A DNA stretch of 63,745 bases, filler included, from Folioceros fuciformis (lineage: Eukaryota), in the NCBI GenBank assembly GCA_049999805.1. It is 5 parts of 4 records of this genome, joined end to end, with 100 filler letters (N's around TTAATTAATTAA, not from the genome) between each part and the next. Parts side by side here need not be neighbours in the genome. Positions count along the whole stretch, not along the records: positions 53,020 to 56,670 come from JBNGIO010006193.1; 4 more parts are not named here. One strand, given 5' to 3'. Under the pieces are notes generated by a model. It was given only the letters and a program-made list of their open reading frames with translations, did no database searches and had not been told where the DNA came from. Made by a program: the position numbers and the translations under genes. Below are positions 4,729-63,745 of the stretch, in pieces; the first letter of the stretch is position 1, and the number at the start of each line of letters is the position of its first letter.

Positions 4729-5180
4729 GCACTAGATTAAGATACAAGAAAGTCTATGTTAGCTTACTCTTTTCTATTAGCTGGTGGAGCAGTCACGTGG
4801 TCCTGAAAGAAGCAAGCGACTGTATCTCTTTCCTCAACAGAAGCTAAATACTCAACACTAACATAGGCAGCCAAGGAGGCTATTTGTCTTAGGAGGTTAC
4901 TCTCAAACTTGGGATTGTCGCATACAGATCATACCATCATTTACTACGACAATCAGATAGCGTTGGCTTTGGCTCAGAATCCTGTGTTCCATGCACGAAT
5001 GAAGCATATCAAAGTGCATGATCATTTTGTTAGAGACGCAGTTAGCACAGGGCAGATAAAACTTGAGTATGTTTCAACAGATTCAAATGTCGCAGATATT
5101 CTTACCAAGTCGTTGCCAAGGGTTAAGCACTATTAGTTTAAGGAGGCTCTAGGTGTGCTGGAGCCCAATCATGGCTTAAC
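4729..5180 (+). pseudogene. Copia RNase H domain (pol C-terminus) with in-frame stops
   Basis: KHI and ADILTK copia motifs, collinear with the C-terminus of pol at 53932-56667. Confidence 0.9.
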
Positions 5181-5277: not shown

Positions 5278-6101
5278 CTAGGACGAGTCACTCTCCTCAT
5301 CAGAAGTTGGTTGGTTCAGAAATTTCTTTGCCTTGTAGTCCGTATCTTCCTCACTGTCAGAGGTCTAGTTCTAGTCCATCCTAGCCTCCTCAAACAGCTT
5401 ATCCTTGGACACCAAAAGAACAAGACAACATGCATTTAAGGGTTTTTGTTACTAGCATCTCTTCCAACCACAACAATAGTGGGAGAATGTCAGAAGAGCT
5501 TATGCAAGACCCTTACTATAGAGTGAAATGAAGTTGCCCCCATCTCCGCCCCATCTGCACCACCTCTCACACACCATGTGAATTCCAGTAGAGGCGCATA
5601 TATAGTCTTCAGGTGTGAGAGGGTCGTTAGCTTCGTTCCCGTCAGAAATCAAGTGTCTTCTCTTCTTCAAGTCACCTACTGGGAGTGCGAGCTTTCTAGG
5701 GATGAAGTCAACAAGAACCACAACCTTGTTGTTCTCCATCTTGTCAGCACTCGTCATCATCTTCACTCTTCCCTCCATGTCGTCTAGGTAGAAGAGCTTC
5801 TTCTTGGTCACCCTCAGCTTCTGCTTCAAAAGGCTGATTTCGTGAGCTATTTTGGCCTTCTCCTTCGGATGTTTTGTGACTTCCCTCCAGTGCTATGTCA
5901 TTTGATAGAACTCCTCTCCTTCCACGGCAAACCAGGATGGACAGGACAGCAAGGAGGAGAGGAAGCTTTGCAACTACACAAGTCAATGACGACTGGAGTC
6001 CTCCTCGTCTAGCTTGATGCTGTGTCGTCTCCCTCCTCGGCACTGAGAAGATCATCAATATCAGATAAAGTGATCGGGGCGGCGGCAGGTCTCCCAGCTA
6101 T
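5278..6101 (-). pseudogene. Antisense accessory ORF of copia A (disrupted), unknown function
   Basis: Translates to PVGDLKKRRHLISDGNEANDPLTPEDYICAST...WCRWGGDGGNFISLYS...VSKDKLFEEARMD*...acidic tail, and is homologous to 53096-53786. The probable start is mutated to ATA at 6101-6099. Confidence 0.75.
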
Positions 6102-6312
6102 GTTAGTTTGCGACAATGCTGAGGCTACAAACCTGAGAGTTGGTGAAATGGACGCGTGAAGTCTCCGACTATGAAGATGTAAGCAATCCAGCTGTAGTCT
6201 GAAGTCTGTCGGTGAGGGAGTACTTCCAATTCGTGGGTTTTATGGGTGAACATGTGGTAGCTGATAAAATTTAATGTCATTTGTGCTAGTAGGTATACCC
6301 AATGAGTGGGAG

Positions 6313-12284: not shown

Positions 12285-12454
12285 CCTGGTACACTGTCTA
12301 TCTACTGTGAAGGATTGGTACTGGTGTTTTCTAGGGTTCTGTGCACACCACACAGGGAGGTCTGCACCTTGGTGGCTCATGCCACAACTTCTATCACGCC
12401 TCAGACTTCATGAGATGTTGCCCTAGGCACAGGACCACCTTGCACAGATTATAG

Positions 12455-13120
12455 TCAGTTGTCAGTGACATGCCTGTTTAGAGGATGAAGCTCAACAGAA
12501 GTTCTAAACATAAGCAGTGCATGGCTAGGTAGTTGTCTACTTACAGGGCGGAGCTTCTTGCCGCACAGGGGGCACAACCTGCTCCTATGAGCACCAACAC
12601 CACAGTCTTTAGGAGCGTTATGTTTTGCTTTGTTTACCTCGATGTCGTCAAGAACATTGCCAGCAGCTATAGTAGCCCTTCTCACAGACTCCTCTACTAG
12701 CTCTACCTGCTGACTGACCACCTCGGCTCTTTTTGTGTCCAGTAGTTTCTCCATCTCTGCAAGCATCGTGAACACCGTCTCCACTTGATCAGCTAGTAGG
12801 GGAGTAGTGGGAGGTCCTCCAGGGGGATGGGCTCTGCGACGAGGGATGCTCACCACTTTGTCCTCCTCGTTAGTTGAGTTGGGCACAGGAGACAAGTTTG
12901 AGATGCTCGGCTTAGAAGCTCTAGAGGATTCTTCCAAATCCAGCTCTATCACTAGAACACTAGCAGAGCGGCGAGGCAGGTCGACAGGTGCTGATGCGTT
13001 GGTCATAGGCATAGGTGCCACAGCTGAAGTCTCTCTTCTGGCTGTTGAGCGCCTATGCTTATGTCCGTCTTCATAGTTGGAACTGCTCGCTCTCTTCTTG
13101 CTTGTGCGCCTGGGAGCCAT
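12455..13120 (-). CDS. Antisense accessory ORF of copia B (221 aa), unknown function
   Basis: ATG in a strong context (AACCATGG). Basic N-terminus, helical middle and CPLC motif. Lies between the pol stop and the 3' LTR. Confidence 0.6.
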   Translation of the reverse strand: MAPRRTSKKRASSSNYEDGHKHRRSTARRETSAVAPMPMTNASAPVDLPRRSASVLVIELDLEESSRASKPSISNLSPVPNSTNEEDKVVSIPRRRAHPPGGPPTTPLLADQVETVFTMLAEMEKLLDTKRAEVVSQQVELVEESVRRATIAAGNVLDDIEVNKAKHNAPKDCGVGAHRSRLCPLCGKKLRPVSRQLPSHALLMFRTSVELHPLNRHVTDN

Positions 13121-13333
13121 GGTTGCTGAGGTGCTGTGTGTCGAGCTTGAGCGGGTTCTCGCCTATCATCTTGTTGCTGCTCACGAATAAGAGGAGGATG
13201 CTGCTTTTAAGAAGGCCGTAAATGAGAACTTGATGGCTGCATGTGGCTTAGTGGTGAGCTGTTAGAAGTATCGTTGGATAATGATATTCTTTTTAAACCT
13301 ATGGTCGTACAAGCAATTTAGGTTTAGTAGGAG

Positions 13334-13481
13334 TGTTAGGGATGGAAACCCTAACATGACTTATACTACAATTAAGGAGTTAACTCAAAAGACACTCAAA
13401 CAGTTTTGAATTTAAGATTACATGGTCCTTCACTAATTAATTGCTCTTTTCCTTGTGCGCACGCTTCCGCATTTATTAGAA
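13334..13481 (+). repeat. 3' LTR of copia B
   Basis: Matches 6603-6750. Preceded by the purine tract AGTAGGAG; the terminal CA is mutated to AA. Confidence 0.95.
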
Positions 13482-25100: not shown

Positions 25101-25175
25101 TGGATAGGTGTGAAGCCAAATACTTCTCACCTACGAGTGTTTAGTAGTATTGCCTTAGCACACATCCCAGATAAG
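22135..25175 (+). mobile_element. Ty1/copia element C, 5' part (putative LTR, gag, PR, integrase), disrupted
   Basis: Putative LTR TGTTAG...CTTACA at 22135-22254 with a degenerate PBS TGGCACAAAGC. Gag from about 23035; knuckle CNYYHKPGHWVRDY; protease WFLDIGSSNHM; integrase VHTDICGP...RSDNGKEY...NGRAERRHRT, closely similar to element D. Confidence 0.88.
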
Positions 25176-26413
25176 TGAAGGAACGCTCAAGGAGCTACAT
25201 GGTGAAGGAGAGGAGAGGAGAAAGAGAGGTCACACATACAAGGGAGCTCAAGGGGGTATTTATACCCCCTCTAGAAGAGCTCCCTAGGAAGCTTCACAAG
25301 AAGCCTACAAGAAGCCTACAGGAAGCTGCACAAGAAGCTTCCTAGAGATTAGCTTAAGCTAATCTAAACTAATGATACTTAACTAGACACTAATCTTAGA
25401 CTAAACACATTAGTCTAGGCACATTGGGCTTTAATAACCCTACAACCGCCCCCTTAAAGGCCAATTTACCTTGATAGGAGAGTGGTCTACCTCATGCCCA
25501 TGAGTGTCCGAGCTTGTGCGAATTGCTCCGAAGAGAGCCCCTTGGTGAGAACATCTGCAGGGTTCTGACTGGTGTGAACTTTGACAAGTTGTACTCTCTT
25601 GTCTTCCAACACCTCTCAAATGAAGTGATACTTCACTTCCACATGTTTGGTCTTCGCATGAAAACACTGGATTCTTTGCCAATTGAATAGCACTCTGGCT
25701 ATCACAATGCAACACTGGCAGCTCAACCTTGATCCCTAAATCGCCCACTAGATGAGCAAGCCACATGGCTTCCTTGCATGCTTCAGTCGCTGCAACATAC
25801 TTGGCCTCTGTGGTAGATATCGTTATGCATGATTGCAAACGAGATCGCCATGAGACTACCTCTCTTATGCACATGAAGACGTAACCTGATGTGGACCTCC
25901 TTTTGTCCATATCCCCTGCATAACCAGCATCCGTATATCCCACGACAGATGCATCTTCACTACCAAAACATAAGCACCAAGCTTTCGTACCATTCAAGTA
26001 CCTCATAACTCCTTTCACTGCCTCCCGATGCTTCCTGCCAGGGTTTGACATAAACCTGCTAACCACTCCCATTGCAAAGGCAATGTCAGGACGTGTAGCA
26101 ATCATTGCATACATCAAACTCCCTACAGCTGATGAGTATGGAACCTTCTCCATTTCAGCTTTGTCCTCCACAGAGCTTGGGCAATCCTTGCTCGACAGTT
26201 TGAAATATGGAGGCAACGGAGTACTTAATACCTTCCCCTTCTCCATATTGAAACGTTGAAGCACCTTGTTAATGTATTCAGTCTGAGACAAGTACAACAA
26301 ATGCTTCTGTCTGTCTCGACGAATACGTATGCTAAGAATATGGCTTGCCTCTCCCAAGTCTGTCATGTCAAAGCGACCATTCAACTTTGACTTCAACGTT
26401 GAAATCTCATAAC
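25176..26413 (-). mobile_element. Copia element C2, 3' part (RT/RNase H, PPT, 269-bp 3' LTR), nested in element C
   Basis: ORF 25440-26396 has MTDLGE, PYSSAVGSLMYAM, GYTDA and CDSQSAI. PPT AAGGGGGCGGT is followed by an LTR TGTAGGG...CTTCA (25444-25176), which interrupts the integrase of C after AHIPDK. Confidence 0.9.
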
Positions 26414-26744
26414 TGTTAGTCCTGAAACAATAGTTAAGTTAGTACAGTCATTAGGCTAGGATTAAACCCAAACTCGACGGGTTCCGGTCGTTGTAACCGT
26501 TTCACGTGACACACAAAAGTGTGCCACACCTGATGAATCGATTGATCCTAAGCAAGCTAAACTTCGCATGGTATCAGAGCATGGGTACCGCGATGTGTCC
26601 AATCTGCAGGCGCGCTGTTTGCACGAATCTTATCTCTATCTCGGAGATTGGAACGCTCATGTATCTTATCAACGTACAATGGACAGAAGGCGCGTCGGCA
26701 GTGATTTGGGAGATGCTCAGTTCGTTATGCTCCCCCAGATTCCT
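26414..26744 (+). mobile_element. 5' end of a third LTR element (155-bp LTR and PBS) nested in C2, truncated by the contig end
   Basis: TGTTAG...CTTCGCA (26414-26568) followed by a perfect PBS TGGTATCAGAGC (26569-26580). Confidence 0.85.
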
Positions 26745-27814: not shown

Positions 27815-30800
27815 ATGGACACGGTGAGATGCTACTCGCGCCGCAAGCGCGCCAAGGCTGCCGTTCCCGAAGCACAAGCTGCGCTTCAGGTGCCTCAAGG
27901 CGGTGATGGCAGCCAGGTGCAGGTGCAACAGCAGCAACAGGTGCCGGAGCCAGAGGTAGGTCCAGAGTCACTGCCGCTGATGCGGCCTGACAACGTTGGG
28001 GAACCAGGGTCTGAGCCTCACCACCGACTTCAGCACGAGCAGCAGACTCAGGAGGAGGAGGAGGAGGAGGAGGAGCAGCTCGGGCAAGAGTGGGGCCGGG
28101 TTGAGGACGCGGACGATGAGCGAAAGACTGCACCTACGCTGGAATTGTCGCCTTCTGAGGACTCGGGCCTTGCCACGCCAGCGTACAAGCAGGGAGTTGA
28201 AGATGCGTTGCTTCAGCTTGCGGACCAGGAAACGCATCCGGAGCCTGCGCCTGAGCCGGAGCCCGGGCCCGGGCCCGGGCCCGGGCCGGAGCCGGAGTCG
28301 TTCCCGGACTCGAAACCAGAGCCTCTATCGGAAGAGGAACAGGAAGGAGAACCGCAATTGCACCTGGAACCCGCTCTGGAAGACCATGGACCTGACTCGC
28401 TCGCCCCAGTGGCGCAGCAGCACGAGTCTCATGAATATCAAGATGATATTCTCAACCGAGCGGACGCCATATGGCAAAAGATTGAGGTTCAAAAATTCCC
28501 ATCAGCCTGTTGTCATGCATAATCCCGCCTCGCTTGGCTTCGCTTTCAACACATTGTTTTTTCTAGCCTGTGTGTGTCACTGCCCTGCCCTGCGCCGGCC
28601 CCGCCTTGCCCATCCCAGTTGCGCTGATCTCTTTTCTTCTCTCGTGAATTTTGCAGACGTTGGAATCCACAAGAAAGCTTCCAGCTAGAGGAAGGGAGCC
28701 AGCTCGTTGCAAGACACACTGGGACTTCGTGCTGGAAGAGATGGCCTGGCTAGCCAAGGTCAGTGAAGCCCACAGCCCCGTCCCCCCTCTCCCCTGCCCC
28801 TCTTGCCCCGAACGCGTCTCACCTCGTCGTTTTGCAGCACTCTTGTGCTATAAATGTCTCACGCATTATTCTTACTGGATTTGCAAAGTGAATGACAAGT
28901 ATTGATCGTGACAGGCAACATCCATCCACGGATGGTGAATGGAATTTGGCAGGATTTTGATAGAGAGAGGAAGTGGAAGCTGACGCAAGCCAAGAAAGTG
29001 GCACTCAAGCTCAGCAAGATCAAAGTCGACCATGAAGCCAAGGGTGTTAAACGGCTGAAGGTGAGTACACATGCTGTCGCTCCCTTTGTCTTTGTCACCG
29101 TGAAGTTTTTCCTCCCAACCTCACTCGTAACGGAACGGCTACAGGAAGAACGGCAACGTGTGCGAAGGCTTGCCAGCAACATTGCTAAGGATGTTAAGAA
29201 GTTTTGGGTGAAAATCGACAAGCTTGTAAGACTTTCTTGGAAATCATGTCCCGCATTCGCACGTAAGTATGCCATCCCAATACCGTTTCTGACCACCCGT
29301 CTATAATGTTGTTTCATCGGACAGTTAGCGTATAAGCACCAGCTTGAGGCGGAAGAGATAAAGAAAAGGGCACGTGACAGACATCTCGACTTTCTCCTTG
29401 GCCAGACTGAAAGGTAGCCCTACTGCCAGTTTGACATGTGACCATACACTGCTAAACGTCGCCACGTTTCCTGTTTGCCTGTCAAATGCCTGTTTGTTCA
29501 GTGTCTATGTGCGAATGCCGGGCTGTTATGATGTGCATGGTGATCGTCTGTTCAGCTCAATTTCCCAGTTGTCGCCTCACGAGTCAGCTCCGTGGCAGGT
29601 ACTCGACTATGTTGGCAGAGACAATGTTGGCAGATCCATGCTTGATTTCTGCACCAAAGTCCCCCCTGCTTACGTCCTCCGCGCCATTTGCTCCCAATGC
29701 AGGCACGGAAGCTGGAAGTCTGCTGTCCCTTGGACATCAGCACGAGGATCATGTTTCTAGAGAACATTTAAGCCCAAGTTCAACTGCTAACGGTGCAGGT
29801 GGCAATGAATTGGAGCTAGAACAGCACAATAAGGTTGTTGGGAATGACTCATCTGCGACACCAAAGCTGGAGATCTTCCTTGGGGATACAGATCCAGGTG
29901 TGGAAAATGCTAATGGAGTTCTACCACATCCGTCTTTCAATAAAGATGTCTCAAGCGGGTGGCAGGTCAATGTGGGAATGGCTGATACGGAAAGCACTCT
30001 TCCCATGCCTGACAAGAACGCTAGCATCCCCTTGGGCGAGGGGGTGCCTAATAACTCTGAAAAACCTGGCTCTACACGTGGAGGATGGACGGGCCAGTCT
30101 CTAGGCAGTGGTTGCCCTAAGGAGCGTGAGCTTGTGCATCAGGTGCATCATGAGAAGGACGACCCTGTTGATGCAAGCACCTTGTCCATTGCCACGACGG
30201 CAGAAGTAGAAGAGGATGTAGTCAACGAATGTGGGGCAACAGTGGGGGCGTCCATAGCTGTTCCAAGTTCAAGTGGTCACGTGGATAACCTTCAACCTCC
30301 AGCCGAGTGCCTTCCGGGGACATTACGAACAAGGCCAAAGGGTCCAGACATGCATCTTGAAACCTTCAGTTTGTCTACTCGTGGCTCAGAGCACGCCAAT
30401 GAAGAAGATGCGGATGAAAGGTTAGGAAGGGAACTACTCGTTGATGCTGCAGCTGCTGCACAATCTGCTCAACCAACCGGGCATACCTTCTCTACAACGA
30501 AGGTTAGGACAGAGTCGCCCTTCCTCTTGAAGCATTGTCTACGGGAATACCAGCATATTGGATTGGATTGGTTGGTAACAATGTACGAAAAACGGTTGAA
30601 TGGCATTCTGGCAGATGAAATGGGTCTTGGGAAAACAATCATGACTATTTCTCTACTTGCGCTCTTAGCTTGTCAGAAGGGTATATGGGGACCTCATCTG
30701 ATTGTCGTCCCAACAAGTGTTATGCTTAACTGGGAAACAGAATTCATGAAGTGGTGTCCTGCATTTAAGGTGATGACATATTTTGGCAATGCAAGAGAGC

Positions 30801-33800
30801 GGAAGATCAAACGCCAAGGTTGGTCCAAACCCAACTCGTTTCATATCTGTATTACCACATATAGGCTGGTTATTCAGGATGCCAAAGCTTTTAAACGGAA
30901 GAAATGGAAGTACTTGATTCTGGATGAGGCACACCTCATAAAGAATTGGAGGTCTCAAAGATGGCAGACACTTTTAAACTTCAACTCTAAACGAAGAATT
31001 CTTTTGACTGGGACGCCGTTACAAAATGACCTGATGGAGCTTTGGTCCCTTATGCATTTTTTAATGCCGCATGTCTTCCAGTCCCATCAGCAATTCCGTG
31101 ACTGGTTCAGCAACCCCATCTCTGGAATGGTTGAGGGGCAGGAGCAGGTGAACAAAGAACTGGTGGAACGGTTGCACAATGTGCTCCGCCCCTTTTTGTT
31201 ACGCCGGTTGAAGCAGGATGTGGAGAAGCAGCTGCCGATGAAGTATGAGCATGTCGTTCTTTGCAGGCTCTCAAAGAGGCAGCGCAATTTGTATGAGGAC
31301 TTTATGGCCAGCTCTGAGACACAGGCTACACTGGCGAGTGGCAACTTTCTTGGCATGATAAATGTGCTGATGCAGCTGAGGAAGGTGTGCAATCATCCAG
31401 ATCTTTTTGAAGGCCGCCCTATCATATCCTCATGTGACATGCCTGGTCTTGACATGAATCTAAGTTCTGGCGTATGGTCGGTCTTAGAAGAGGTGAGTCC
31501 CATGTCAGCTGTGGACTTGAGTCATCTTAACCTCCTTATTGGAAATTTGGAGTTTGAAATGTCGTCATGGGCATGTGAAGAGATAAAAGATCTCGCAACT
31601 CCAACCTCCCTGATTGAAGAAATCTCAAGCACAGGGCAAGATAGTTGGGGTTCGCAACAGAAGAACCCTGTGTCTGACTCCGAATTTGGTGGGCTTATTG
31701 AAGAGATACAGGCTTCCCTTGCAGAACAGAAACTGCAGCAGCGGAGGGAAAGGGCCTTAGGCTTGGCAGTGATGAACACGATGCGCTGCAGTCTGGCGCC
31801 CATTTATGGGTTAAGCTTACGACAGACTCTGGTTGTGGAGCACCCTGTGTATGATGTGCACAAGATCAAAATGGAGGAGCGTAGATACTTCGATTTCTCG
31901 TCCAAGATTGCCGATATGGTACTTCTACCCATTGTCAGGATGGAATCCCTGGTAGAGCTCATCGAAGCCTTTGTTTTCGCCATTCCAGCTGCTCGAGCAT
32001 TACCACCTGTTGGCTGGTTCACCCAAAAGTCTCTGCCAGCTAATCCCCTCAGGTCCGCACTGCAAGAGACTAAGATTGCGAGAGAAGTGAGTGAACTGCT
32101 TGTTCCTCTGAGACCGGTGTTTGTTCGGAGGCAACTCTTCTTCCCTGACAGAAGGCTCTTGCAGTTTGATTGTGGGAAGCTTCAAGAACTAGCATCTTTG
32201 CTACGTCGTCTGAAATCAGAAGGACATAGGGCTCTGATTTTCACTCAGATGACAAAGATGCTTGATATTCTTGAGAGTTTCATTAATCTGTACGGGTATA
32301 CCTATATGAGGTTGGATGGCTCAACCAAACCTGAGCAGCGTCAAATACTTATGCAGCGTTTTAATACGAACAAGAAAATCTTTCTGTTCATTCTTTCCAC
32401 ACGGAGTGGTGGGGTTGGAATCAACTTAGTTGGTGCTGATACTGTTATTTTCTATGATAGTGATTGGAATCCTGCAATGGACCTACAAGCTCAAGATAGG
32501 TGCCATCGAATAGGTCAGACAAGGGAGGTTCACATCTACAGATTGGTTAGTGAGAGCACTGTGGAAGAGAACATCCTGAAGAAAGCAAACCAGAAAAGAC
32601 TGTTAGATGACTTAGTGATCCAAAGTGGCAGTTACAACACAGAGTTTTTCAAGAAGCTGGATCCTATGGAATTACTTTCTGGGCTGAGGAGTGGGAAATC
32701 TGTTGGGAGTGCAGAAGCTCCTGGGACAGCAGACGAAAACAAGGCTACAGCTTCCAAGCAGGAAGTTTCAAATGCAGATGTTGATGCTGCCTTGAAAAAT
32801 GCAGAGGACGAAGCTGACTACATGGCTATGAAGCGAGCTGAACAAGAACAGGATGCTGAGAATCAGGAGTTCACTGAAGAGGGATTCGCAGGGATTTTGG
32901 ATGATGAAGAATGTGCGGATGAGAATGGCGGGGTCAAGGCACTGGAGGAAATTTCCCCTGCACAACCTGTGAATGGTGACGCTAATGAACTTCCAGTTCT
33001 GGTCTCGAAGGAGAGTTCAAGCATGTTAACAACAACTGTTCCTGCTGAGCCTGAAGAAGACATAGATATGCTCGCAGATGTTAGGCAGATGGCTGCTGCT
33101 GCAGCAGCTGCTGGCAAAGACAGCATTTCCTTTGAGGACCAATTGCAGCCAGTCGAACGGTATGCTATGCGCCTTCTCGAATTCTGGGATGGTCTGCCTA
33201 GAAAGAACACGAGTGAAGCTCAAGCGGTGTATGAGGAGAAAGAGTGGGAACTTGACCAGCTTGAGAAGCTGAAGGAGGAACAAGAGGCAGAGATTGATGA
33301 GGACAATGAACCTTTGTTCTACGAAAGTATGTTAGCAGGAATAACCTATGTGAAAACTATGGTTGTGTAAGGCGAACTTTGCTTGGTGTCTAACGCAGTG
33401 TGGTCAGGTCAGCTCATGGCATTGGTGGTATTTGTGGCAGGCTGGGACACAACATTCGCGAATGAAGCGTATCGACAGCAGGTTGAAGTGTTAGTTCAGC
33501 AACAGGTTTGTGATTTGTTCCTAGTGTTCTGCCGGTGTTGTTTCCCTTCTCTGGTCTACATTGACACCCTGCTTTCAAACACGTCAAATTGTTTGTGGTG
33601 TGTGGTGATCGGTGTATAGGAGAATCAAAGACTGGAATGGGAAGCCATTAACGAGGAGATGTACGATGCTGACAGGTATGTAGTCTGACAGTGAATATTC
33701 TGTTCAAGAGGACTCTTTCCAATGTAGTGAGGCATGGCATGTTGAAGAGTCTAAGATATGGCTCCTGCTTGTTCGGTCAGAGCTGTAGAAGAAGCTGCAG

Positions 33801-36800
33801 CCACAGTTGTTGGTGCAGAGATTTTTAAGCTGAAGCGTAAGTCAAAAGATAAGTTGAAGCTGAAGAAGACCAAGTTCAAATCTCTGCGACATGATGGGTT
33901 TCCCAGACACAGGACAGAAGCCAATTTGAAGCCTACTGTATCCGATGAGTTTGTGAGCCCAAGCGCTGAAGATGCTAGAGCAGACATGTCACTGGTCCCA
34001 GCTCGCAGTCCATCTCAAAGGAAGCGAAAGGCTCCCAAACTACTGGAAGAAGAACTTCTTGTGGAAATGGAGCAAAGAAAGTTATGGAAGGAAAGTGCAA
34101 TTAGAGACCGTGGTGCTGGAAAAACGAAGTCCAAGAAAGGGCCAAGCAGATTAAGCAATGAGAGGGCCCTAGAGTTTGGAGATGAAGAATGGCCAGGATC
34201 GATTCGTCCTGAATCGATTGTAATGCCATCCCCAGCGAATGCCTCGACAAAAACGCCTTTGAAATCTAAACTGAGTGGCATGAATCTGAAAAAGGGACCA
34301 CTCGTTATGTTAGAGAGGGAAAAGAAAAAGGATGCCACAAAGTCTTTGGATCAGGTCCCTCAGGCTGATCCCTGGGTGCCTGCTGAAGATGCTGTGTTGT
34401 GTGCAGTTCTCCATGAATATGGAGGCAATTGGCAGCTGGCCAGTGATGCGTTGGCTGGGCTTCCTGATGGTGGTGTGTATAGGGGTCGATATCGGCACCC
34501 TATCCACTGTCGGGAAAGATTCAGACAGCTCCTTGCACAAAATGCTTCCGCAGCAAATGGTGATCCTACAGCTTCCAAAATTGCTGCTGCAAATGCTCCG
34601 TTGAAGGTCACAGAGGTGAAACACCTGGGTCTCTGCTATGGTTGCTGTGCTATCCTGTGTCTGGATTAGATCTCTTTTGGTGGATGGTTTTACTAATGTA
34701 TACTTCATTTGCTTCATTTGCTGCAGGAGCACACCAAGAGGCTGTTGGAAGTTGTACAGCAGCTTCCAGATGACGAGTTTTTGTTGCAGCGCCACTTCAG
34801 TGCCGTGCTAGAGGTCGTTCAGAAGTCATCCACACGCTTAGAAGCACTGGGAGGAAGCAGTGGGATCATTTCCCCTCATTCTGGAACATTTATATCGTTG
34901 AAGAGCTTGAAGTGGCTGCCTTCAGCCCTTTCTGGCCTCAGCGACGCAGAACTACTTATAAAAAACAGTGGTCTCTCTCAAGCTTCCCACCTGTCGGTGT
35001 CAGCATTGATTGAGCAGGCATCAGAGGTTAGAAGTGGTGGTATTGACCAAGCTCTGGATGTAAAGACAAACAGCTCTCAACTAGATTACTTCACTCAAGA
35101 GCCCATGGCAGATGATGAGATGACGTTCATTGCTAGCCTCTTAGTTGGCCCTAAGGCTGCTGCCAAGGGTTCTGTATCTCCATCAGGATCAGGTCACGTT
35201 CAAAGTACAGGGCAGCGGGTTTCTATCGAGAAGTTGTTTGATCTGAGAACCATGCCAGATGAATCAAGCTTTTCGAATGGACTGAGACCTTTGCTGACAG
35301 ACATTGTCGACCAGCGGTTCAGGTATTACTTAGCACTTGTGAATCGTAGGGAATGTTTCATGTGGCCCTGGTCCCTTCAAGGATTCTATCTGCAGTTTAA
35401 TTTAGGCCTGCCTACCGATGCTAAGACTACTTGCTTTGGCATAAGAGCTCATGGGGTGTCCTGTGGTTGCAGGAATGCCATGAAGATATTTGGTGACGGA
35501 GACGCTCTGAAGTGGGTCTCTGCTGCAGGGACCGTGACAGGTGTTGCTGGCGCAGAACTCCCGACAAGAAGAATGGCGGGTAAGAAGCGTCCATCTCGGG
35601 ATGCCAGTAAGCCCCCAAAACCAAAACAGGCACGGGTGCAGGGCGAGCCAAAAAAGGGATCCAACAAGACGCTTTGGCAACCTGATATTGTTGAGAGTGG
35701 GTCGATGCCCTGCCAAGCATCAGGAGGCTTTGAAAAAACGCAGCAGCTAGCGGCAGAGGCGGCTGAACCAGAACAGGTAGTTCCTTGCCCTCTACCTGTG
35801 CCGGGGGTCCAAGATGTTCAGGACAAGCATCAGGTTGGGTGATCCACATATTTCAAAAGTCCCAGGAAGTGGCCTGTCTAGAACTTTTCTCGGGATGGTG
35901 GTGATAATCTTAAATTTTACTTGGGCCATTCTATTATTATCTTGGGTCCTGTAGCTAGTGCAAGGAGGGTTGCTGCAGGGTGGATGTTGTAACGTAAGTC
36001 AGCTGCTAAGAGTGACTGCCAAAAGCTTAAACTGGGATTTTGTGGGTGCGGTGCCAAATGATCTAATAAGTTCTTTTTGGAGTGGTGTTGAAAAGGGTAA
36101 GCTTGGTTTGCATTAGCAAAGGCAAATTCTAGATGCAACATGGTGTTCGTCTTGCCTGATGTAATTTGTTTGGTTGTAAAGGGAAGCACACAACGACTTC
36201 GAGCAACTGAACTTGCTGGCGATGGTGGTGATGTCCTCAGCAGTAGGTCAAACTCATCAGCAATTCGAAAGGCCAATGACTACAGTGGGCGTTTTGGTGG
36301 ATCTCCTGGAAGGGGGAATGCATGTTTGCCTGGAGATGAAATCGCAGCTGGGCCTCGGAGTAGCATACAAGTGAAGGTATTGGAGGGTATGTCTCCTCTT
36401 CACATTGGAGTGAGGACTCAAGGAGTCCCTGGGCGAAGCAGTACGGTGCCCACCGGAGGTGAACCGAAGATGGCGGGTCTTCATTCCAGGTCAAGCATTT
36501 CAAGACTACTCGCAAATTCCAGAGGCTTGGTTGTGTTGCCTCCATCCTTGGAAGCCAAGGTGACCTCCCCAAGGTGGTCTCAGATCCCATCGAGTAGGGA
36601 AGAACATGCAACGACAGGAGCTTCTAGGCTGCTCCCGACTAATTTGTGGGCTAGCAGTGATCCAGATAGTAGGTTAGACAATTCTCGAAGATGTGTAGGG
36701 AGACAAACTAGAAGACCACCAGAGCATGGCAATGCTCCAGAAGCACCTGAAGGCAGTTTCCAGAGGCACTGCCAAGATGGTGAGCATATTCGCTATCAGG

Positions 36801-37471
36801 TACAAGCAGAACAAGGTCAGTGTAAACCGGCATCCAATACTGGCCAGGTTCAGCCTGAAGTTTTTCTGGGTAACTATTATTCGAGATCTTCCAGGTCTCA
36901 CCCTCAGGCTGCTGAAAATCCTGTCTGGACGGGTGTTGGGGATCACGCTGTGAGGGAGTCAACTGCGTGGGTGGAGGATCGACCTGCAACTCATCCTAGG
37001 AATGACTTGTTCTCAGCGAGTAGTCCTGTCGTGTGTGAGCATTCGAGAGGATTGCTCGTAGAGTATCAACTATCAGCACTGGAGGCAGCAAGAAGGCTTC
37101 AAGGGTTAGAGGCCTCCGTTGGGTTCCCAGGTCGAGGTTTTTGTGGCCTGTCCTCAGATTTCCCTGGGTTTGGTTCAAATTCTCAGTCGGTGAAGGGTTT
37201 AGGTCATGTTTTGCCCTCGAGTTCTTTCTCGGAGCCGTATGTCAGTATTCCCTCTCCGTCTTATCCCAGTTCAAGCAACTTGAGGGGTTCTGCTCATCAA
37301 TCAACATATCAGCTTTCAACTCATCAGCTTTCCCGCCCTAGCTTTCCTGTCAAAGTCAGGTCCCAATGGGACGTCTCTCCCGGCCGAGCACGTTCCGTAG
37401 CTTCTGACGCCCCTCTTAGCAGTAGCTTTCAGCAGGACTCTGCGGGGACTTCAAATTCTCCGTCCTTGTGA
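27815..37471 (+). CDS. PIE1: PIE1 / SWR1-type SNF2 chromatin-remodelling ATPase, about 12 exons
   Basis: HSA domain [25 protein letters not shown]; SNF2 motifs NGILADEMGLGKT, LILDEAH, LLTGTP; helicase C QAQDRCHRIGQ; SANT-like WVPAEDAVLCAVLHEYGGNWQL. Exons: 27815-28486, 28657-28758, 28953-29060, 29145-29225, 29325-29413, 29599-33326, 33441-33505, 33620-33675, 33781-34615, 34727-35322, 35473-35833, 36182-37471. The start and last exon are less certain. Confidence 0.93.
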
Positions 37472-53019: not shown

Positions 53020-53095
53020 TCTGTCTCGTACCACTCAGAAGCTCGGCCTCTACAGCAGAGACTGTCACCTGTTCTGAGCAGCTCAACACCACACC

Positions 53096-53786
53096 ATGTC
53101 GGGTTCCAGGGCTGAGCCTATTGATCTCTCAGAGGCGGCGCCTGAGGTGCAGCCAGTCCTGGACGAGCTGCAGAAGGTGCTAGATGCCTTAAACGCGACG
53201 CCTCTTCCTCCAAAGGCGAAGGAGTCCCCTGGTATGGCTGTTCTCCGTCGCAAGCTTTGCAAGTGCCCTGATGACGCTTCTCTCTATCCGAGGGACTGGA
53301 CGCTGTTGTGATTCCGGAAAAATATCAGCCCAGAGTCTTCACCGTGCCGGTTGGACACCTACACAAGATGCGACAGGTAGTGACAGATGGGGATGGAGCT
53401 AACAACCCTTTGACGCCTGAGGTCTACATCTGCCCTACTACTCTGTCAATACATGGTGACCATGTATTGACAGAGTTGGTGGCACTGGGGCGGACAAGAC
53501 GGCAACTTCATATCATACTACAGTGAGTCCACAGCACAAGTCTGATCTACTGCACACAATTATTGTGGTTTGACCTGCTGTAGGTACTCACTCTAAAAAC
53601 TGTTCAGTGTCCAAGGAAAGGATGGCTGAAGAGGCAGGCATTGACTGGATGGATGAGAATGAAGACACATCTGACGACAACGACCCTGACTTTGATCCTA
53701 ACTTTGTAGGGTTCCAGGGAATGAACAGGGAGGGGAAGTCAAGAGCCCTATCCCCCTCTTCCTCTGATGACTCTGAAGAGGTCTAA
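53096..53786 (+). pseudogene. Antisense accessory ORF of copia D (frameshifted in this assembly), unknown function
   Basis: Pieces MSGSRAEPIDL...KAKESPGMAVLRRKL / PVGHLHKMRQVVTDGDGANNPLTPEVYICPTT / WWHWGGQDGNFISYYS / VSKERMAEEAGIDW + acidic tail. Homologous to 5278-6101. Confidence 0.75.
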
Positions 53787-53931
53787 ACATCCCTGGTGAC
53801 CATCTCACAGGTAGGAAGTTAGTGTCAGATGAATTCCAGCATGCCTAACAGCTGACTCCTCAGACAGACTCTCTTACTTGCTGTGGGACACGTTTGTTAT
53901 GTGGAGGGGTCCTAGGACACCCAAGGACTCC

Positions 53932-56667
53932 TTAAACTGATAGTGGCTTCATCCTAGGTAAGGCTTTCGTAAGCAAATCCGTAGCATTAGCATCAGTCAG
54001 CACATACTCAAGCTTGACTTGTTTTGTCTCAACAGCATGTCGAATGAAGTGATGATGGACTTCAACATGCTTAGTTCTGGCATGAAATACTGGATTTTGT
54101 GCCAAAGCTAACGCTGATTGATTGTCGCAATATATAGTTGTTGGTTCTCGCTGTGGTTGTCCAAGATCTGATAACAATCTTCTCAGCCAAATTGCCTCTT
54201 TAGACGCCTGTGTCAAGGCAGAGTATTCTGCCTCTGTTGACGAGAGAGACACAGTCGTTTGTTTCTTTGAGGACCATGTAACTGCTCCACCAGCTAGAAG
54301 AAAAGCATATGCTGAAACGGACTTCCTCGTATCAGGATCTGCTGCCCAGTCAGCATCGCAGTATCCTATCAGCATAAGCTCCTCTCCTTCAAAGGCTTGT
54401 TTGGAATAATGTATACCATGATCACTCGTGCCCTTCAAATATCGAAGAATCCGCTTAACAGCTGACCAGTGTACCTTTCCTGGATTCTTGAGGTGCTGAG
54501 AGACCATGCTCACTGGGAGAGCTACATCAGGCCTACTATTGTTTGAGTAGTATATGAGTGAACCTACTGCTTGGGCATAGGGAACTGCCTCCATCTCCTG
54601 CTTATCAGCATCAGTCGCTGGAGACTGTGAGCTGGACAACTTGCAACCAGTTTCAAGAGGTGTAATTGCTACCTTAGCTTCCTCGAGCTTATACTTGAAT
54701 AACATATCCAGAATATACTTCTGCTGATGTATTACCAATGTGCCACTTGCAGAGTCACGAGACAGCTGAGTGCCGAGGCAGTAGGACAACTCCCCGACAT
54801 CTACCATTTCAAAGCGACCAGACAGCAGACCTTTAACTCTGGTAATCCCCTCAAGATCAGTGCCTAGGAGTATGCAATCATCTACGTACAAAGCTAGTAT
54901 AACAAAACTTGTTTTGTCTTGCAGGAGATAAACATTCGAATCTGCTGAGCTTTTAAGAAAACCAAGTCCTAGCAGGAACTCATCTATGACTTCATACCAA
55001 GCACGGGGACTCTGCTTCAAGCCGTAGATAGTTTTGAGTAACTGACAGACCCAGTCCTCTTTCCCTTCTACCTCGTACCCCTCAGGCTGTTGCATAAAGA
55101 TATCTTCCTCTAATTTCCCATGGAGAAAGGCGGTCTTAACATCCATCTGGTGGATGAAAAGGCCAAAAAACGCAGACATGGAGACGAGGACACGAAGAGA
55201 CTGAGACTTAACTACAGGGCTAAAAGTATCATGGTAGTCTAAGCCAGGGACTTGAGAGAACCCACGAGCTACTAACCTGGCCTTGTATCTGGAGATAGAG
55301 CCATCCGCCTTATATTTCAACTTGAACACCCACTTCGAGGTGACAATTTTCCTCCCCTGAGGCGGAGGAACTATCTTCCAGGTTTGATTGTGGATCAATG
55401 AGTCATATTCAGACTGGATTGCTGCTTTCCAAAGCTTGGCCTCTGGCCCACTAACAGCCTCTTGATAACTTTGTGGTTCACAACCAGGTTCGAAAGCAAG
55501 GTTAAGGAAATCAACCACCACTCCATCGGCAGCTGAACCAGGAGGTCGAGGGACTTTCCGAAAGTCTTCACTGCTGTAAGGTGCCTCCTTCCAATTCTCA
55601 CGTGTTCTGTGCACTCGAGTAGACCGCCGAAGAGGGGCAGGCTGGGGAATGGGCATCACATATTCGACTGGATCATCTTCGAACCGCTCAGGATGTTGAA
55701 TAACAGGCTGTGGAATAACTGGGGCTGGAGGTTCATCATCGTCTGACTGTACAAGTACAGGAAGCAAGACATCATCGAGATCAGCAGGTGGATCATCTAG
55801 ATGTGTATCATCAGACTGGTCAGGGGGATCACCAAGGGCTTGTGGGGGAGGCACCACAGGTAAAGGGTCAGGAGTTGTAAAGGAAGGATCTGAGTCAGGA
55901 AACGTGGCAGATTCAAAAGCACTAACATCATCCTCTGGCTCGACAGGTTGGTTATCAACTTCTACAACATCAGGATCTGTGAAATCATCAAAGGAATGAG
56001 CTGGCGGCTTAAGAACAGAACGCTCATCGAAAACAACTGTCCTGGCATGTGAAACCTTTTGAGTAACAGGGTCGAACAACTTATAACCATGTATACCCGC
56101 TGTATAGCCAATGAAGATGTGACGTTTCGACTTATAGTCAAACTTGTGGCGAAGCTGATCAGGCACATGAGCATAGGCGGTACTCCCAAACACTCGGAGA
56201 TGTGCCAGATCTGGTTTACACCCAGTCCACACTTCAAAGGGTGTACAGCTGCGAAGAGATGAAACAGCAGAACGATTTTGTAGGTATGTCGCAACTTGCA
56301 CTGCTTCCGCCCAGAATTTAACTGACAGTCTTCCTTGATACAAAAGAGAGCGAGCAGCATCCTGGATGGTCCTGTGACGACGCTCCGCACGTCCATTCAT
56401 ATCAGAGTGATACGGAATGGTGAGTTGTCTAGTTATCCTCCTCTCCTGACAATATTCCTGGAAGGCTAGGGATAAGTACTCCTTGCCATTGTCACTTCTG
56501 ATACAATTCAGCTGATGTCCAGTCTGCCTTTCTGCGTATGCAAGGTACCGCTTGAAGCTGGAGAATACTTCACTCTTGTGGCGTAAAAGCTCTGTCACTG
56601 TGAAGTGTGACTTATCGTCCTCGAACACAACAAAATATTTAGCGCCTCCCCAGGAGGGTACCGACAT
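53932..56667 (-). mobile_element. Ty1/copia element D pol (integrase-RT-RNase H), open for 911 codons, 5'-truncated
   Basis: RSDNGKEY, NGRAERRHRT, QMDVKTAFLHG, YGLKQSPRAW, LYVDD, YCDADW, KHVEV. There is a frameshift in the last few codons. Confidence 0.95.
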
Positions 56668-56670
56668 TGG

Positions 56671-56951: not shown

Positions 56952-59900
56952 TCAATCTTCACGCTCCGTGCTTGCTCTCCGGTCCGCCGCTGTGCTCCAC
57001 CTCAAGGGATTGCCTGCTGATCTCAGCCCCATGGCCGCCGCATGCTCATAATGCTTGATGCGCCCCAAGGCCTTCGTCAGTATGTCTGCGGTCATTGCTT
57101 CTGTGGGGCAGTAGGAGATCCTTACCAGGCCTTGAGCTACAGATTCGCGGATGTAGTGATGCTCAATTCCAATATGCTTGGTCCTGGCGTGGAAGCGAGG
57201 ATTCATCGTTAGCGCGATTGCGCTCTGGTTGTCACACAGCAAATCTATTGGCAGTTCCTGCGGTATGCCCAGCTCTCTCAATGCTCCCACTGACCAGGTG
57301 ATTTCTTTGCACGCCTCCGTGAGGCTCTTGTATTCCGCTTCCGTAGAGGACAGGGCAATGGTTGACTGCTTCTTGCTGCTCCATGAGATTGCCCCGCCTG
57401 CTAGGATTGTCACATAACTACTAATGCTCTTGCGGCTGTCTGGGTCTCCACCCCAGTCAGCGTCGCTGTAGACTGTAAGACACAGTGCATTCTTTGCCTT
57501 CGAGCTGTACAAGATCCCCCACTCAGCTGTCCCAGCAATATACCTATAGACCCTTGTCATCAGGTCTTGATGTGCTCGATTGGGATTTGAGACAAACCGT
57601 GAGGTCAGTCCAGAGGTGAACGCCAGATCAGGCCTGCTGCCTATCATCAAATGCATTATGCTTCTGTTCTCCGATGAATACAACTCGACATAGTGTGCGT
57701 CCTCCTCAGGTATCTCTCCCTGCTGCTGAGTGTACTTTACATTCTGCTCTACTGGAGTAGCTACAGGCTTGCAGCCAGTCATGCCATATCTGGCCAAAAT
57801 CTGCTGAGCATACTTGTGCTGGTGCAGGAAAATGGTGCCCGCACCCCGATTTCGAAGTAGCTGCATGCCCAAGCAGTAGGAGAGAGCACCAGCCTCTGTA
57901 GTCTTAAATGCTCTTCTCAGGTTTTCCTTCAAGTCAGATATCATGCGTAGAGAGTTACTGAGGATGATGATATCATCCACATAAATGGCGAGTGCCAGGA
58001 AGCTTGTCCCTTCTCTTTTCACATAGACGTTACTGTCAGCGTGCAAGCTTCCATATCCGAGCTCTGTCAGGTACGTGTGGATTCTTTCGTACCATGCTCG
58101 GGGGCTTTGCTTAAGCCCATACAAATTCTTTCTAAGTTTGCATACGGGACGAGACAAATTCGTAGGCACTGATACTCCTGCAGGCACTTGCATATATATC
58201 TCCTCCTGCAGGTTCCCATAAAGAAATGCTGTGGTGACATCGAGCTGCTCCAGCTCGAGATTGTTCACCGCGGCAAGTGCCACAAACATTCGCAAGGTAG
58301 TGAGCTTAACAACAGGGCTGAACGTGTCATCATAGTCCACCCCAGGTATTTGTGAATACCCTTTTGCTACTAACCTTGCTTTATACCTCGCGATGCTTCC
58401 ATCAGCTTTTAGTTTAATCTTGAACACCCACTTACTGCCCACTGGTTTCCTGTCTGCAGGGAGACTAGCTATAGTCCAGGTTTGGTTCTCATACAGAGAA
58501 GCTAGTTCAGACTGGATGGCGTTATGCCAATGTTCAGCATTAGGGCAGCTGAGTGCTGCTTCATACGTAGGAGGTTCGTACAGAACGGTGTTGGCAGCTA
58601 GGCAGTAGGACAGGTTTGATTTAGGATGCCGAAAATCTTCGGGTGCAAACATATCTGGTGGTCGGCGTGTTCTCTGAGACTGCCGAGGCTTCCTTCTGTG
58701 CTGCTCAACTGGAGAAGCTGACGGAATCACTGTCTCGGGCTCTTCAAAGGTCAAAGACCCAGCTGAAGGTGTGTCTTGCAGATTCCGGCTGCTAATTATG
58801 CGTCCAGGTGTGCGCATAGGTGTCTGCATAATGGGTGACTGTGGTGCTGGAGGTCTGACTGGTGGCGCCTGTGGTTGTGCTGCAAGTACTGCTGGCGCAG
58901 CAGGAAGAGGAACGCGTATATCGCCAACCATCATCTCCTCCTCCTCTTCTGCTGAGCCATCATCCGAGCTGGAATAGTCAGGAGGAGTTGCTCCCACTGG
59001 CTGTTGGGACTCCACTCCTTCGACGAACACCACGTCCCGGGAATGGGTGACGACCTTCGTTCGCCGATTGAGCACCTTATACCCTTTGATGCCGTCAGTG
59101 AACCCGATAAAAATACAATGGTTGGACTTGGGTTCGAACTTTCTACGTAGGTCCTTGTGGATTTGGGTGTACACCGACGAGCCAAAGACACGGAGGTGAG
59201 CAAGGTTGGGCTTCTTGCCTGTCCACATTTCATAAGGTGTTTTTCCCTTCACAGATTTGTGGGCTACCCGGTTTTGAATGTAGGTAGCATACCCTACTGC
59301 CTCTGCCCAGTAAGCTTTTGGCAGATTTGCGTACTGGAGCATGCTGGAAGCCGAAGTCTCCAAGGACTGATTCTTGTGTTCAGAAACCCCATTCTGTTGT
59401 GGGGTATAGGCGTTCGTCAGCTGCCTAGCGATGCCATGCTGGGTGCAAAAAGCATCGAATTCCTTGGATGTGTACTCACCGCCGTTGTCGGACCTCAGGA
59501 TTTTCAGATGATGACCAGTTTGGGTCTCAGCCCAAGCCTTGTACTCCACAAAGCATGCGAAAGTTTCTGACTTCTGCTTCAGGAAATATACTACACAAAA
59601 ACAGGTGTAGTCATCGATGAAAGTGGTAAAATACTCCTTCCCTCCAAGAGATACTGGTAGCTTTCCGCATACATCACTGTGTACGAGCCCTAAGATTTCT
59701 GTGGCTCTTGTTGCTTGTCCAACAGGGAAGGATGTGCGCTTGTGTTTGCCCAACACACAAGCCTCACACACTCCAAAATTCTGGAGGTTGTCAAGTGTGA
59801 TACCGTCCACCAGCTTATCTTTGTACATGCTCACAAGCTTCTGAAAATTAATATGACCCAGGCGAAGGTGCCAAAGGTACGTGAGAGATGGCTTTGCATA

Positions 59901-59987
59901 ATGCGAGTGATCAGAAGCGGAGAGGGCTTGCTCTTCCGTCACATCTAAATGATATAGGTCGTCCTGCTGCAGGTGTCCAGTGGCCAA
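56952..59987 (-). mobile_element. Ty1/copia element E pol (gag-pre-integrase, integrase, RT, RNase H), 1011 aa open, 5'-truncated
   Basis: LWHLRLGH, CEAC, VHSDVCG, RSDNGGEY, QLDVTTAFLYG, IYVDD, YSDADW, ADILTK. A purine tract and LTR-like sequence with TATAAATA follow directly (56771-56950). Confidence 0.95.
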
Positions 59988-60027
59988 GAGGGTGCCATCC
60001 TTGTTCTCGACGACACATCTACCATCT

Positions 60028-60238: not shown

Positions 60239-63200
60239 TTAATCCTCATGTTGTGGAGCGTTTTGGAGGGGTACATCCTCCACTTCATGCTCCACAAACG
60301 TCTCATAGTATGGCTTGAGGCGATGGCCATTCACTTTGAACTCGTTACCTGTTTGTTCACTCTTTATCTGCACAGCTCCATGAGGAAACACATGAGTAAT
60401 AACAAAAGGTCCAATCCAACGAGAACGAAGTTTACCTGGAAAGAGTTTAAGACGAGAATGGAATAAAAGAACTTTCTGTCCCACAACAAAAGTCTTCCTA
60501 CGAATCATCTTATCATGGAATGCCTTAGTCTTGTCCTTGTAGATCTTGGCACTTTCGAAAGCATCATTCCTAATCTCCTCTAACTCTTGCAATTGTAGCT
60601 TCCTATGAAGCCCAGCCTCATCTAGATCCATGTTAAACTGCTTCACAGCCCACCAAGCTTTGTGCTCTAACTCCACAGGTAAATGGCAAGGTTTGCCATA
60701 GACAATTCGATATGGGGACATACCTATGGGAGTCTTGTATGCAGTTCTGTAGGCCCACAAAGCATCCTCTAAACGCAAGGACCAATCCTTTCTGTTAGGA
60801 TTCACAGTCTTCTCTAATATCCCCTTGATTTGACGATTTGAGACCTCAGCTTGCCCACTTGTTTGGGGATGATAAGGTGTAGAAACCTTATGTGTCACAT
60901 CATATTTCTTCAAGAGAGCCTCAATCGTCCGATTGCAAAAGTGGGAACCACCATCACTAATGAGAACTCTAGGCATTCCAAACCTGCTAAAGATGTTAGA
61001 CTTGATAAAATCTGCAACAACCTTAGAGTCATTAGTTCGAGTGGCTTTTGCCTCCACCCATTTCGAAACATAATCCACAGCAAGCAAGATGTAGAGAAAG
61101 CCAAAAGATGAAGGAAAAGGTCCCATGAAATCTATACCCCAGACATCAAATATTTCAACAGTTATGATATTAGATAAAGGCATTTGATCTCTAGAGCTTA
61201 GATTTCCTGTTCGTTGGCATCTATCACAAGTCAAACAATATGCATAAGCATCCTTAAATAACGTTGGCCAAAAGAACCCAGATTCCAACACTTTAAACGC
61301 AGTCTTCTTAGACCCAAAGTGACCCCCACATGCTTTAGAATGGCAAAAAGAAAGTATAGCATTATGTTCATGTTCAGGCACACATCTCCTAATCAATTGA
61401 TCAGAGCAATACTTCCACAGATAAGGTTCATCCCAAACATATTGTTTAACAGTTTTCTTAAGCCTATCTCTATGAGCACGTGACATGGTATCAGGAATTT
61501 TCCTAGAAACAATGTAATTCACAATATCCGCATACCATGGTTCACTTACCTGGATTCCAAAGAGTTGTTCATCTGGAAACGTCTCCACCAAAGGGAGAGG
61601 GTCTTCTGCGTGCACCAAACGACTCAAGTGGTCAGCTACCACGTTCTCACTACCCTTCTTGTCCTTGATTTCAACGTCAAACTCTTGCAAGAGTAGGATC
61701 CATCTAATGAGCCTTGGTTTCGCCTCCTTCTTGGTCATCAAGTACTTCAAAGCTGCATGGTCAGTATAAATAATAACCTTGGTACCAAGTAAGTAAGAAC
61801 GAAATTTCTCAAGTGCAAAAACAACTGCAAGGAGCTCTTTCTCTGTAGTGGAATAGTTCAATTGCGCATCATTAAGAGTCCTTGAGGCGTAGTAGATGGC
61901 ATAAGGTCGTTTGTCCTTCCTTTGCCCCAAAACAGCTCCAACTGCATAGTCAGAGGCGTCACACATCAACTCAAAGGGCAAGGACCAATCTGGAGGCAAC
62001 ATGATGGGAGCTGACGTCAACAGCTCCTTGAGCTTGTCAAAGGCCTCTTGACACTCCTTGTCAAACACAAACGCCACATCCTTTTGGAGTAGTTGGCATA
62101 AAGGTCTCGAAATCTTTGAGAAGTCCTTGATAAACCTCCTGTAAAAACCTGCATGGCCAAGAAAAGAGCGAATCTCTCTCACAGAAGTGGGAGAGGGTAA
62201 GTAACGCACAAGGTCTACCTTAGCTTTATCAACTTCTATTCCTCTAGATGAAACAATATGCCCTAAAACTATACCTTGTCTAACCATAAAATGACATTTT
62301 TCCCAATTTAGCACAAGGTTAGTTTCCACACAACGTTTTAAGATAATTTCAAGATTATTAAGACAATCATCAAAGCTTTTTCCGAAAACAGAAAAGTCAT
62401 CCATGAATACCTCTATGATTTTCTCAATATAATCTGAAAATATACTTACCATACACCTCTGAAAGGTACCTGGGGCGTTGCATAGTCCAAAAGGCATGCG
62501 ACGATAAGCAAACGTTCCAAAGGGACAAGTGAATGTCGTCTTCTCTTGGTCTTCATTGGCTATGGCAATCTGATTGTAGCCTGAGTAGCCATCGAGGAAG
62601 CAGTAGTAATCATGTCCAGCCAAACGCTCAAGCATTTGATCAATGAATGGAAGAGGAAAGTGATCTTTCCTTGTTGTTGCGTTGAGCTTCCTGTAGTCAA
62701 TGCAAACTCTGTGGCCAGTAACTGTCCTTTGGGGTACCAATTCGTTTTCTGCATTCTTCACAACAGTCACTCCTGACTTCTTAGGTACAACTTGAACTGG
62801 GGACACCCATTTGGAGTCTGAAATTGGGTATATGACGCCACAATCTAGGAGTTTGATGACCTCCTTCTTCACAACTTCCATCATAGGAGGGTTGAGACGA
62901 CGTTGAGCCTCTCTAGTGGGTTTAGTCCCCTCCTCAAGAAGTATCCTATGGACGCAAGTAGTAGGGCTTATTCCCTTGATATCCGCCAATGTCCATCCTA
63001 TGGCGGTCTTGTGTTGTTTCAACATCTCCACCAATCTCTCCTCTTGAGAAGAAGTAAGAGATGAGGACACTATCACTGGTAAAGTCTCCTTGTCTCCTAA
63101 GTAGACATACTTCAAGTGGTCTGGGAGAGGTTTAAGTTCAAGTTCTGGTGCCTGGACCACTGAAGGTAAAGTCTTATTAGCAGATAACTGAATGGACAAG

Positions 63201-63745
63201 GGTGGAGGAGATTTACCTACAAAGGATGATGCCTCAAGGAAGGACACATTAGCAATGATTTCGTCCTCACATGTTTCCTTGAGCACATCCTCATGGAGTG
63301 TGACGCCATCCTTGGTGTAGCCCACTCCTTGTTCAAGTGTGGTGGCCAAAGTATCCTCATTCATGACATCAAACATTTCCTGCGCAAGATTGTCTAGAAT
63401 ATCAATAGAAAAACAATCATTAACATCAAGAGGATACCTCATGGCTTCAAATATGTTGAAGCCAATAACGTCACCATCAAATTCCATGGTGAGAGAGCCA
63501 TCATACACATCAATCTTTGTTCTAGCCGTCCTTAAGAAAGGGCGACCCAATAGTAATGGCGTTGAACTCACAGGGGAGTCCTCCATCTCCAACACATAGA
63601 AGTCAGCTGGAAAGAAAAGATGATTAACCTGCACAAGAACATCTTCCAACAAACCTCTAGGGTATGCATTAGATCTGTCAGCTAACTGAATGATAACATT
63701 GTTAGATTTAAGCTCACCTAGACCTAGGGTTTCATAAACAGAATA
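60239..63745 (-). mobile_element. Ty3/gypsy pol, Athila-like non-chromovirus (protease end, RT, RNase H, integrase), open frame running off the window
   Basis: [73 protein letters not shown]. No chromodomain. GCGCTGCTTGGGAGGCAACCCA follows the stop, a motif I recall from Athila-type elements. Confidence 0.93.

Follow-up and report, generated by a model that had tools for sequence, protein, structure and literature searches.

Genes that lie between pol and the 3' LTR of LTR retrotransposons, on the strand opposite to pol, form a recognised, unexplained class. Such antisense additional ORFs (aORF-3R) are described in the accessible part of PMC7264820 from maize Grande (gene23), rice RIRE2, Silene Retand, common bean (ORF2) and the fungal element Boty, with a function that is given there as not established and a regulatory role that is suspected. 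For common bean, the accessible part of PMC4093653 places antisense ORF2 in 15 families, all of them Ty3/gypsy; of the 65 bean copia families, 63 have the polyprotein alone and two have a sense env-like ORF as well, and the SIRE-type Ty1/copia elements SIRE1, ToRTL1 and pvRetro3/4 carry sense env-like ORFs of 381-793 residues. The published examples of antisense extra genes that we found are Ty3/gypsy, and a literature search that took in few of the subscription journals returned no antisense extra ORF for Ty1/copia; PMC2774666 does not mention Osser, and PMC6317226 mentions neither antisense nor additional ORFs.

Here we describe a locus of the same layout in Folioceros fuciformis. The window, by which we mean the whole stretch of 63,745 nucleotides that was analysed, is eukaryotic and rich in LTR retrotransposons, and is made up of five contigs whose joints are N-TTAATTAATTAA-N spacers; the locus sits on the third contig (53020-56670, 3651 bases), the bounds of which fall before gag and before any LTR of the element. 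We consider it fairly probable that positions 53096-53786 are a partly decayed copy (copy D) of a lineage-specific protein-coding gene of a Ty1/copia group, lying antisense between pol and the 3' LTR. Coordinates of the features are collected in Table 1.

Table 1. Features of the antisense gene in copies A and D, of the associated pol genes and of the surrounding window.
Feature	Positions	Strand	Remarks
Pol end of copy A	4729..5135	+	71% identical to pol D over 133 residues; three in-frame stops
Antisense gene, copy A	5281..6116	-	Behind another copia pol end; core 5518-5727
Copia gag, integrase and RVT_2 pieces	7717-12233, 23396-26438, 53935-56670, 56955-60026		Pfam
Antisense ORF of element B	12455-13162	-	Intact, 235 codons, basic N-terminus; between pol and 3' LTR
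Host SNF2 helicase exon	29456-33367		1304 codons; Pfam
Antisense gene, copy D	53096..53786	+	ATG at 53096; convergent with pol D
N-terminal frame, copy D	53096..53308	+	71 codons, ATG 53096 to stop 53309-53311; out of frame with core
Second frame piece, copy D	53275-53523	+	Resembles copy A
Conserved core, first part	53293..53441	+	Through YIC; 46 residues align to copy A
Inverted repeat of the assembly	53440..53476	.	37 bases; self-match 97%
In-frame TGA	53468..53470	+	Three codons ahead of WxxWGG; Cys codon there in copy A
Third frame piece, copy D	53471-53542	+	Resembles copy A
Conserved core, second part	53471..53522	+	WxxWGG, GNFIS; 15 residues align to copy A; HMM E 4.6e-9
Candidate intron	53523..53607	+	Donor GTGAGT 53523; acceptor AGs end 53583 or 53607
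Putative C-terminal exon	53608..53786	+	Acidic, Ser/Asp/Glu-rich; stop 53784-53786; open frame 53574-53786
Probable true end of pol D	53874..53945	-	22 further codons, stop 53874-53876, via frame entered at 53945
Copia pol of copy D	53935..56670	-	Integrase part, RT, RNase H region; 912 residues without stop
Gypsy-type pol	60242-63745		Pfam

The pol gene that converges with copy D is open from 53935 up to the contig end, one codon more than the 911 with which it had originally been called nearly intact. Its Pfam domains (rve, E 4.7e-10; SH3_retrovirus, 2e-26; RVT_2, PF07727, 2.1e-67) lie in that order at residues 3-89, 149-218 and 428-673, and with an RVT_2-type reverse transcriptase and an integrase ahead of it the host element is Ty1/copia; no relative of pol D above 50% identity was found. 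The predicted indel near the end of pol was located at 53945, and the 22-codon extension that is reached through it resembles the same frame behind the pol of copy A. The stop of the antisense gene faces the pol end at 53874-53934, the 3' LTR itself being off the contig, so the position downstream of pol on the opposite strand that marks antisense aORF-3R genes is found in copy D, and copy A has the same layout. Elsewhere in the window, 23396-26438 holds the gag and integrase start of a D-like copia element, 74% identical to residues 1-175 of pol D and abutting an inverted fragment of another copia pol; it is a nested or rearranged insertion at a contig end. At 29456-37468 (+), the long single exon of the SNF2-family helicase gives way to short GT..AG stretches and to ORFs that have a Myb-like domain.

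The claim of a second antisense gene copy behind a copia pol, at 53096-53786, is upheld by its position, its orientation and its similarity to copy A: tblastx aligns 53305-53566 with 5724-5473 at a joint E of 9e-18 in the 64-kb window, and blastn finds 68% identity over 143 bases. Copy A is old and decayed, since the pol end beside it has three stops; the antisense copy itself has stops before the core and in the tail, among them two in-frame TAGs in the tail, and has no ATG at the aligned start. Four homologous blocks had been proposed, of which the core blocks YIC and WxxWGG/GNFIS and the start of the tail stand; in a global DNA alignment the tails of the two copies also match over their first 13 codons. 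Between the N-terminal parts there is no significant likeness (17 of 300 shuffles reached the score of 30 that the best frame had), and since they cannot be aligned the start of the gene is tentative. The proposed CG..C motif has to be given up as a conserved protein feature, as it falls between the donor and the acceptor of the candidate intron, where both copies have stops. Within the window, the gene is present in both of the two copies of the lineage in which the region between pol and LTR is visible, and a core HMM run against the six-frame translation of the window gave no third copy.

One read contig from sequencing run X1, 2087 bases long and resembling pol D at about 80%, also aligns with 88 bases in the antisense tail (53692-53779), skips the 102 bases that follow and resumes at 53882. 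It hints at a third, diverged lineage with at least the end of the gene.

The core bears the mark of a coding sequence. Over the 61 ungapped codons aligned between copies A and D, changes at codon positions 1, 2 and 3 number 22, 11 and 33, and pN is 0.28 against a pS of 0.63 for this one pair of sequences; the corresponding values for the two pol ends are 0.15 and 0.79. The antisense core is conserved less than pol, yet it is clearly constrained, with conservation comparable to that of the element's own proteins. Across the core, only the proposed frame is stop-free in both copies, and the other five are all interrupted by stops (1-7 in copy A, 1-4 in the first core part of copy D, in which the proposed frame is the sole open one of the six). 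Because of the codon-position pattern and the single open core frame in both copies, the protein appears to have been under purifying selection while the two lineages diverged, as judged from one pair and 61 codons; such a pattern is unlike that of an RNA element or of a complementary strand.

The frame of copy D is interrupted several times, as had been predicted: it changes near 53275-53310 and at 53442-53476, is stopped by the TGA at 53468-53470, and is closed together with the two other frames within 53523-53583. Contig-end errors, real decay and small introns had been offered as causes, and all three occur, the first as assembly errors or private variants and the last as one probable small intron. 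The comparison was made with contigs of reads from two DNA runs of one sample, X1 and X2, which contain 80% of the words of the stretch; such contigs drop rare variants. A single contig in each run covers 53020-53981 (word depth 63 in X1 and 45 in X2), and relative to the window it has three substitutions (53286, 53484 and 53808) and lacks 11 letters, at full depth in both runs: 7+1+1+1 within 53442-53454 and one at 53945. Contigs of a third run of the sample, X3, are likewise 10 letters shorter at the palindrome, and copy A has a 10-base gap at the place of these letters and is also without the extra letter at 53945. As 10 is 3x3+1, the two parts of the core share one frame in the version given by the reads. 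Since neither the frameshift in the palindrome nor the indel at the end of pol is present in the read contigs or in copy A, both are put down to assembly error or private variation, and the 37-base inverted repeat has the appearance of a templated foldback error made in assembling a repeat contig.

Two of the interruptions are real decay. At the TGA no read difference is listed, one contig in each of X1 and X2 covering the place, and the frame change near 53275-53310 stays in the reads, the 11 contig gaps all being accounted for elsewhere; in-phase GT..AG pairs do exist in the N-terminal region (for example 53177..53292, 116 bases), without comparative support. After removal of the candidate intron, an uninterrupted frame is found neither in copy D, with its TGA and N-terminal frame change, nor in copy A, with its several stops, and copy D no longer encodes the whole protein. 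The original prediction was to be dropped if all young copies carried disrupted frames and no spliced product existed; the disrupted copies of the window and the TGA in the sole read contig lean towards that outcome without reaching it. Two ways of reading through the TGA were rejected. A role as a sense codon or selenocysteine is at odds with the standard code in which pol D (912 codons), pol C (1024), the SNF2 exon (1304) and the gypsy pol (1168) are open, and an 18-base GT..AG stretch around the TGA is far shorter than the other candidate introns and is absent from copy A.

Counting the full-depth substitutions around the antisense gene and about ten further places in pol, the window differs from the read contigs by about 0.4% overall, and the contig 53020-56670 may represent a multi-copy element in collapsed or error-prone form. 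In X1, word depth is 55-63 for D-type contigs and 12-26 for diverged relatives, depth not being copy number.

The remaining interruption of the frame is probably a spliceosomal intron, to judge by the two sequences. Directly after GNFIS each copy has a GT, and its codon phase is the same in the two, in GTGAGT at 53523 in copy D and in GTAAGG at 5516-5515 on the minus strand in copy A; both reach stops within seven codons of it (five codons past GTAAGG in copy A). In copy D, an AG ending at 53583 or at 53607 would close a stretch of 61 or 85 bases, and both rejoin the frame, which after either acceptor runs for 59-67 stop-free codons to 53786 with a tail that resembles that of copy A. The distance to the first AG is 61 bases in copy D and 65 in copy A, a difference of 4, and copy A has no in-frame acceptor; CTGAY is present in both copies. 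The GT..AG stretches of the neighbouring SNF2 gene, judged by eye, measure about 70-110 bases. Given how LTR elements replicate, an intron can presumably outlast retrotransposition only in antisense orientation, where its splice sites are not presented by the genomic (sense) RNA.

Inside the candidate intron, an 18-base stretch (53540-53575 and 5465-5500) is conserved at 16 of 18 positions, more than its surroundings. A branch-site region and a cis element are both conceivable.

Searches for relatives of the gene were negative throughout. Four pieces of it gave only noise in Pfam (E 0.03 or worse), with no SMC-like domain; a 130-residue piece of copy A found no relative in a word-indexed search of 5.8 billion clustered proteins, the ESM Atlas gave no usable match, the best hit of a profile search of the PDB had an E of 0.49, and Rfam at gathering thresholds gave no match in the window. 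A HMMER profile built from copy A and two pieces of copy D was run against 1.84 billion representatives, and its sole match, a 708-residue tandem-repeat protein, was rejected as spurious, a 19-residue motif matching 11 times. Six metagenome loci that came up with the 70-residue core (274 pattern matches) were also set aside; they share one 8-residue pattern only and have no pol nearby (0 tblastn matches of pol D). The conserved Trp, Gly and Cys positions had been taken to suggest a folded domain; AlphaFold2 on a three-row alignment returned an unusable model that shows none (mean pLDDT 44, pTM 0.29). No RNA run with the stretch was found, and X4, which we guess to be RNA, has one contig on 40 bases of pol only.

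The place behind pol is also occupied in a third copia element of the window. Element B (6603-13479) is full-length, with a copia-type gag and flanking LTRs at 6603-6748 and 13334-13479 that are 92% identical, and between pol and its 3' LTR it has an intact antisense ORF. This ORF is not significantly similar to the gene of copies A and D (best BLASTP E 0.12 over 21 residues), and no relatives of it were detected, 5.8 billion clustered proteins included. An antisense frame is therefore seen at this place in all three copia elements of the window in which the region is visible.

Run X3 is bisulfite-like over 53020-56670, with 394 C>T and 387 G>A places. In all eight listed pieces the changed letters match the CHH cytosines of one strand to within 4 (changed/CHH 102/101, 150/154, 117/117, 68/66, 81/81, 50/49, 81/80 and 46/46), so that the cytosines in CG and CHG contexts seem to have escaped conversion. 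Pol and the antisense gene would thus be densely methylated at CG and CHG, a pattern of the plant type, and the element would be silenced in that sample.

If 53096-53786 is what we take it to be, the gene would contain one or more short spliceosomal introns, with one immediately behind the GNFIS block, and would be transcribed from a promoter of its own near the 3' LTR, towards pol. Its product, of about 170-200 residues, would begin with a variable N-terminal part, continue with a conserved core, rich in Trp and Gly and about 70 residues long, and end in an acidic Ser/Asp/Glu tail. It might help the element in an accessory or regulatory role, the kind of function also assumed for the antisense ORFs of Grande, RIRE2 and Retand.

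Both copies are broken, and copy D has a long open pol while its antisense frame carries a stop, as would be seen if the sequence descended from a piece of a host gene, or from some other mobile element, that was captured in reverse orientation in the common ancestor of A and D, was carried along for a time and is now decaying without a role; an intron-bearing antisense gene is, moreover, the expected leftover of capture at the DNA level. We regard this as unlikely, since a pN/pS well below 1 across the split between A and D implies selection inside the elements, no similar host or transposon protein turned up among the 1.84 billion representatives or in Pfam, and element B has an unrelated antisense ORF there, a hint that the position as such is in use. 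It is more doubtful still that what is conserved is an antisense RNA or a cis-acting 3' internal sequence, acting for example through double-stranded RNA, with the frame incidental. A non-coding RNA would not be expected to show the 22/11/33 distribution of changes or the single open frame in both copies, and the window has no match to an Rfam family, set against the well-conserved 18 bases within the candidate intron and the antisense stop only about 87 bases from the probable stop of pol, so that an antisense transcript would overlap pol. Antisense transcripts of LTR elements with a possible role at the RNA level are discussed in the accessible part of PMC7264820.

That the two 3' regions are non-coding and alike by chance hardly deserves credence: there are only two copies, with unlike N-terminal parts, but a tblastx E of this size in a 64-kb window comes with the same position and orientation relative to pol and with collinear blocks. 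Returning to the protein-coding gene that we favour, WG/GW motifs of plant and viral proteins serve as Argonaute hooks. We offer as a long shot that copia elements here generally carry antisense intron-bearing genes and that the A/D protein is a working factor whose invariant Trp-Gly-Gly core is an Argonaute-binding "WG hook" that blunts RNA-directed silencing of the element.

Should the gene prove to be a selected, intron-bearing antisense gene of a copia element, such genes would arise independently in both superfamilies, and, at about 200 codons, it would be a compact system in which to ask what antisense extra genes do. For annotation, the locus carries the lesson that one break of a gene and an indel at the end of pol can be assembly errors at a repeat contig, as they (or private variants) are here, and that another break can be a probable intron.

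Compared with the described aORF-3R genes, the A/D gene is alike in its place between pol and the 3' LTR, its opposite strand, its lack of similarity to known proteins and its retention between related families. It differs in its host, which is Ty1/copia (RVT_2, integrase before reverse transcriptase) rather than Ty3/gypsy, and in its size, the protein of about 170-200 residues standing against 211-939 in bean ORF2 (accessible part of PMC4093653). It also has a probable intron and neither an SMC-like nor any other Pfam domain, whereas an SMC-like domain is reported, in what is accessible of that literature, for some ORF2 proteins; judged from database-wide rather than pairwise searches, it does not belong to the sequence family of Grande gene23, RIRE2, Retand or bean ORF2. 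With the env-like ORFs of SIRE-type elements it shares the character of an extra copia ORF between pol and the 3' LTR, but those are sense and larger, and the A/D gene is antisense and has no similarity to any Pfam family. The ORF of element B is likewise copia, antisense, between pol and the 3' LTR and without known relatives, but it is intact, with 235 codons and a basic N-terminus, and has no significant similarity to the A/D gene.
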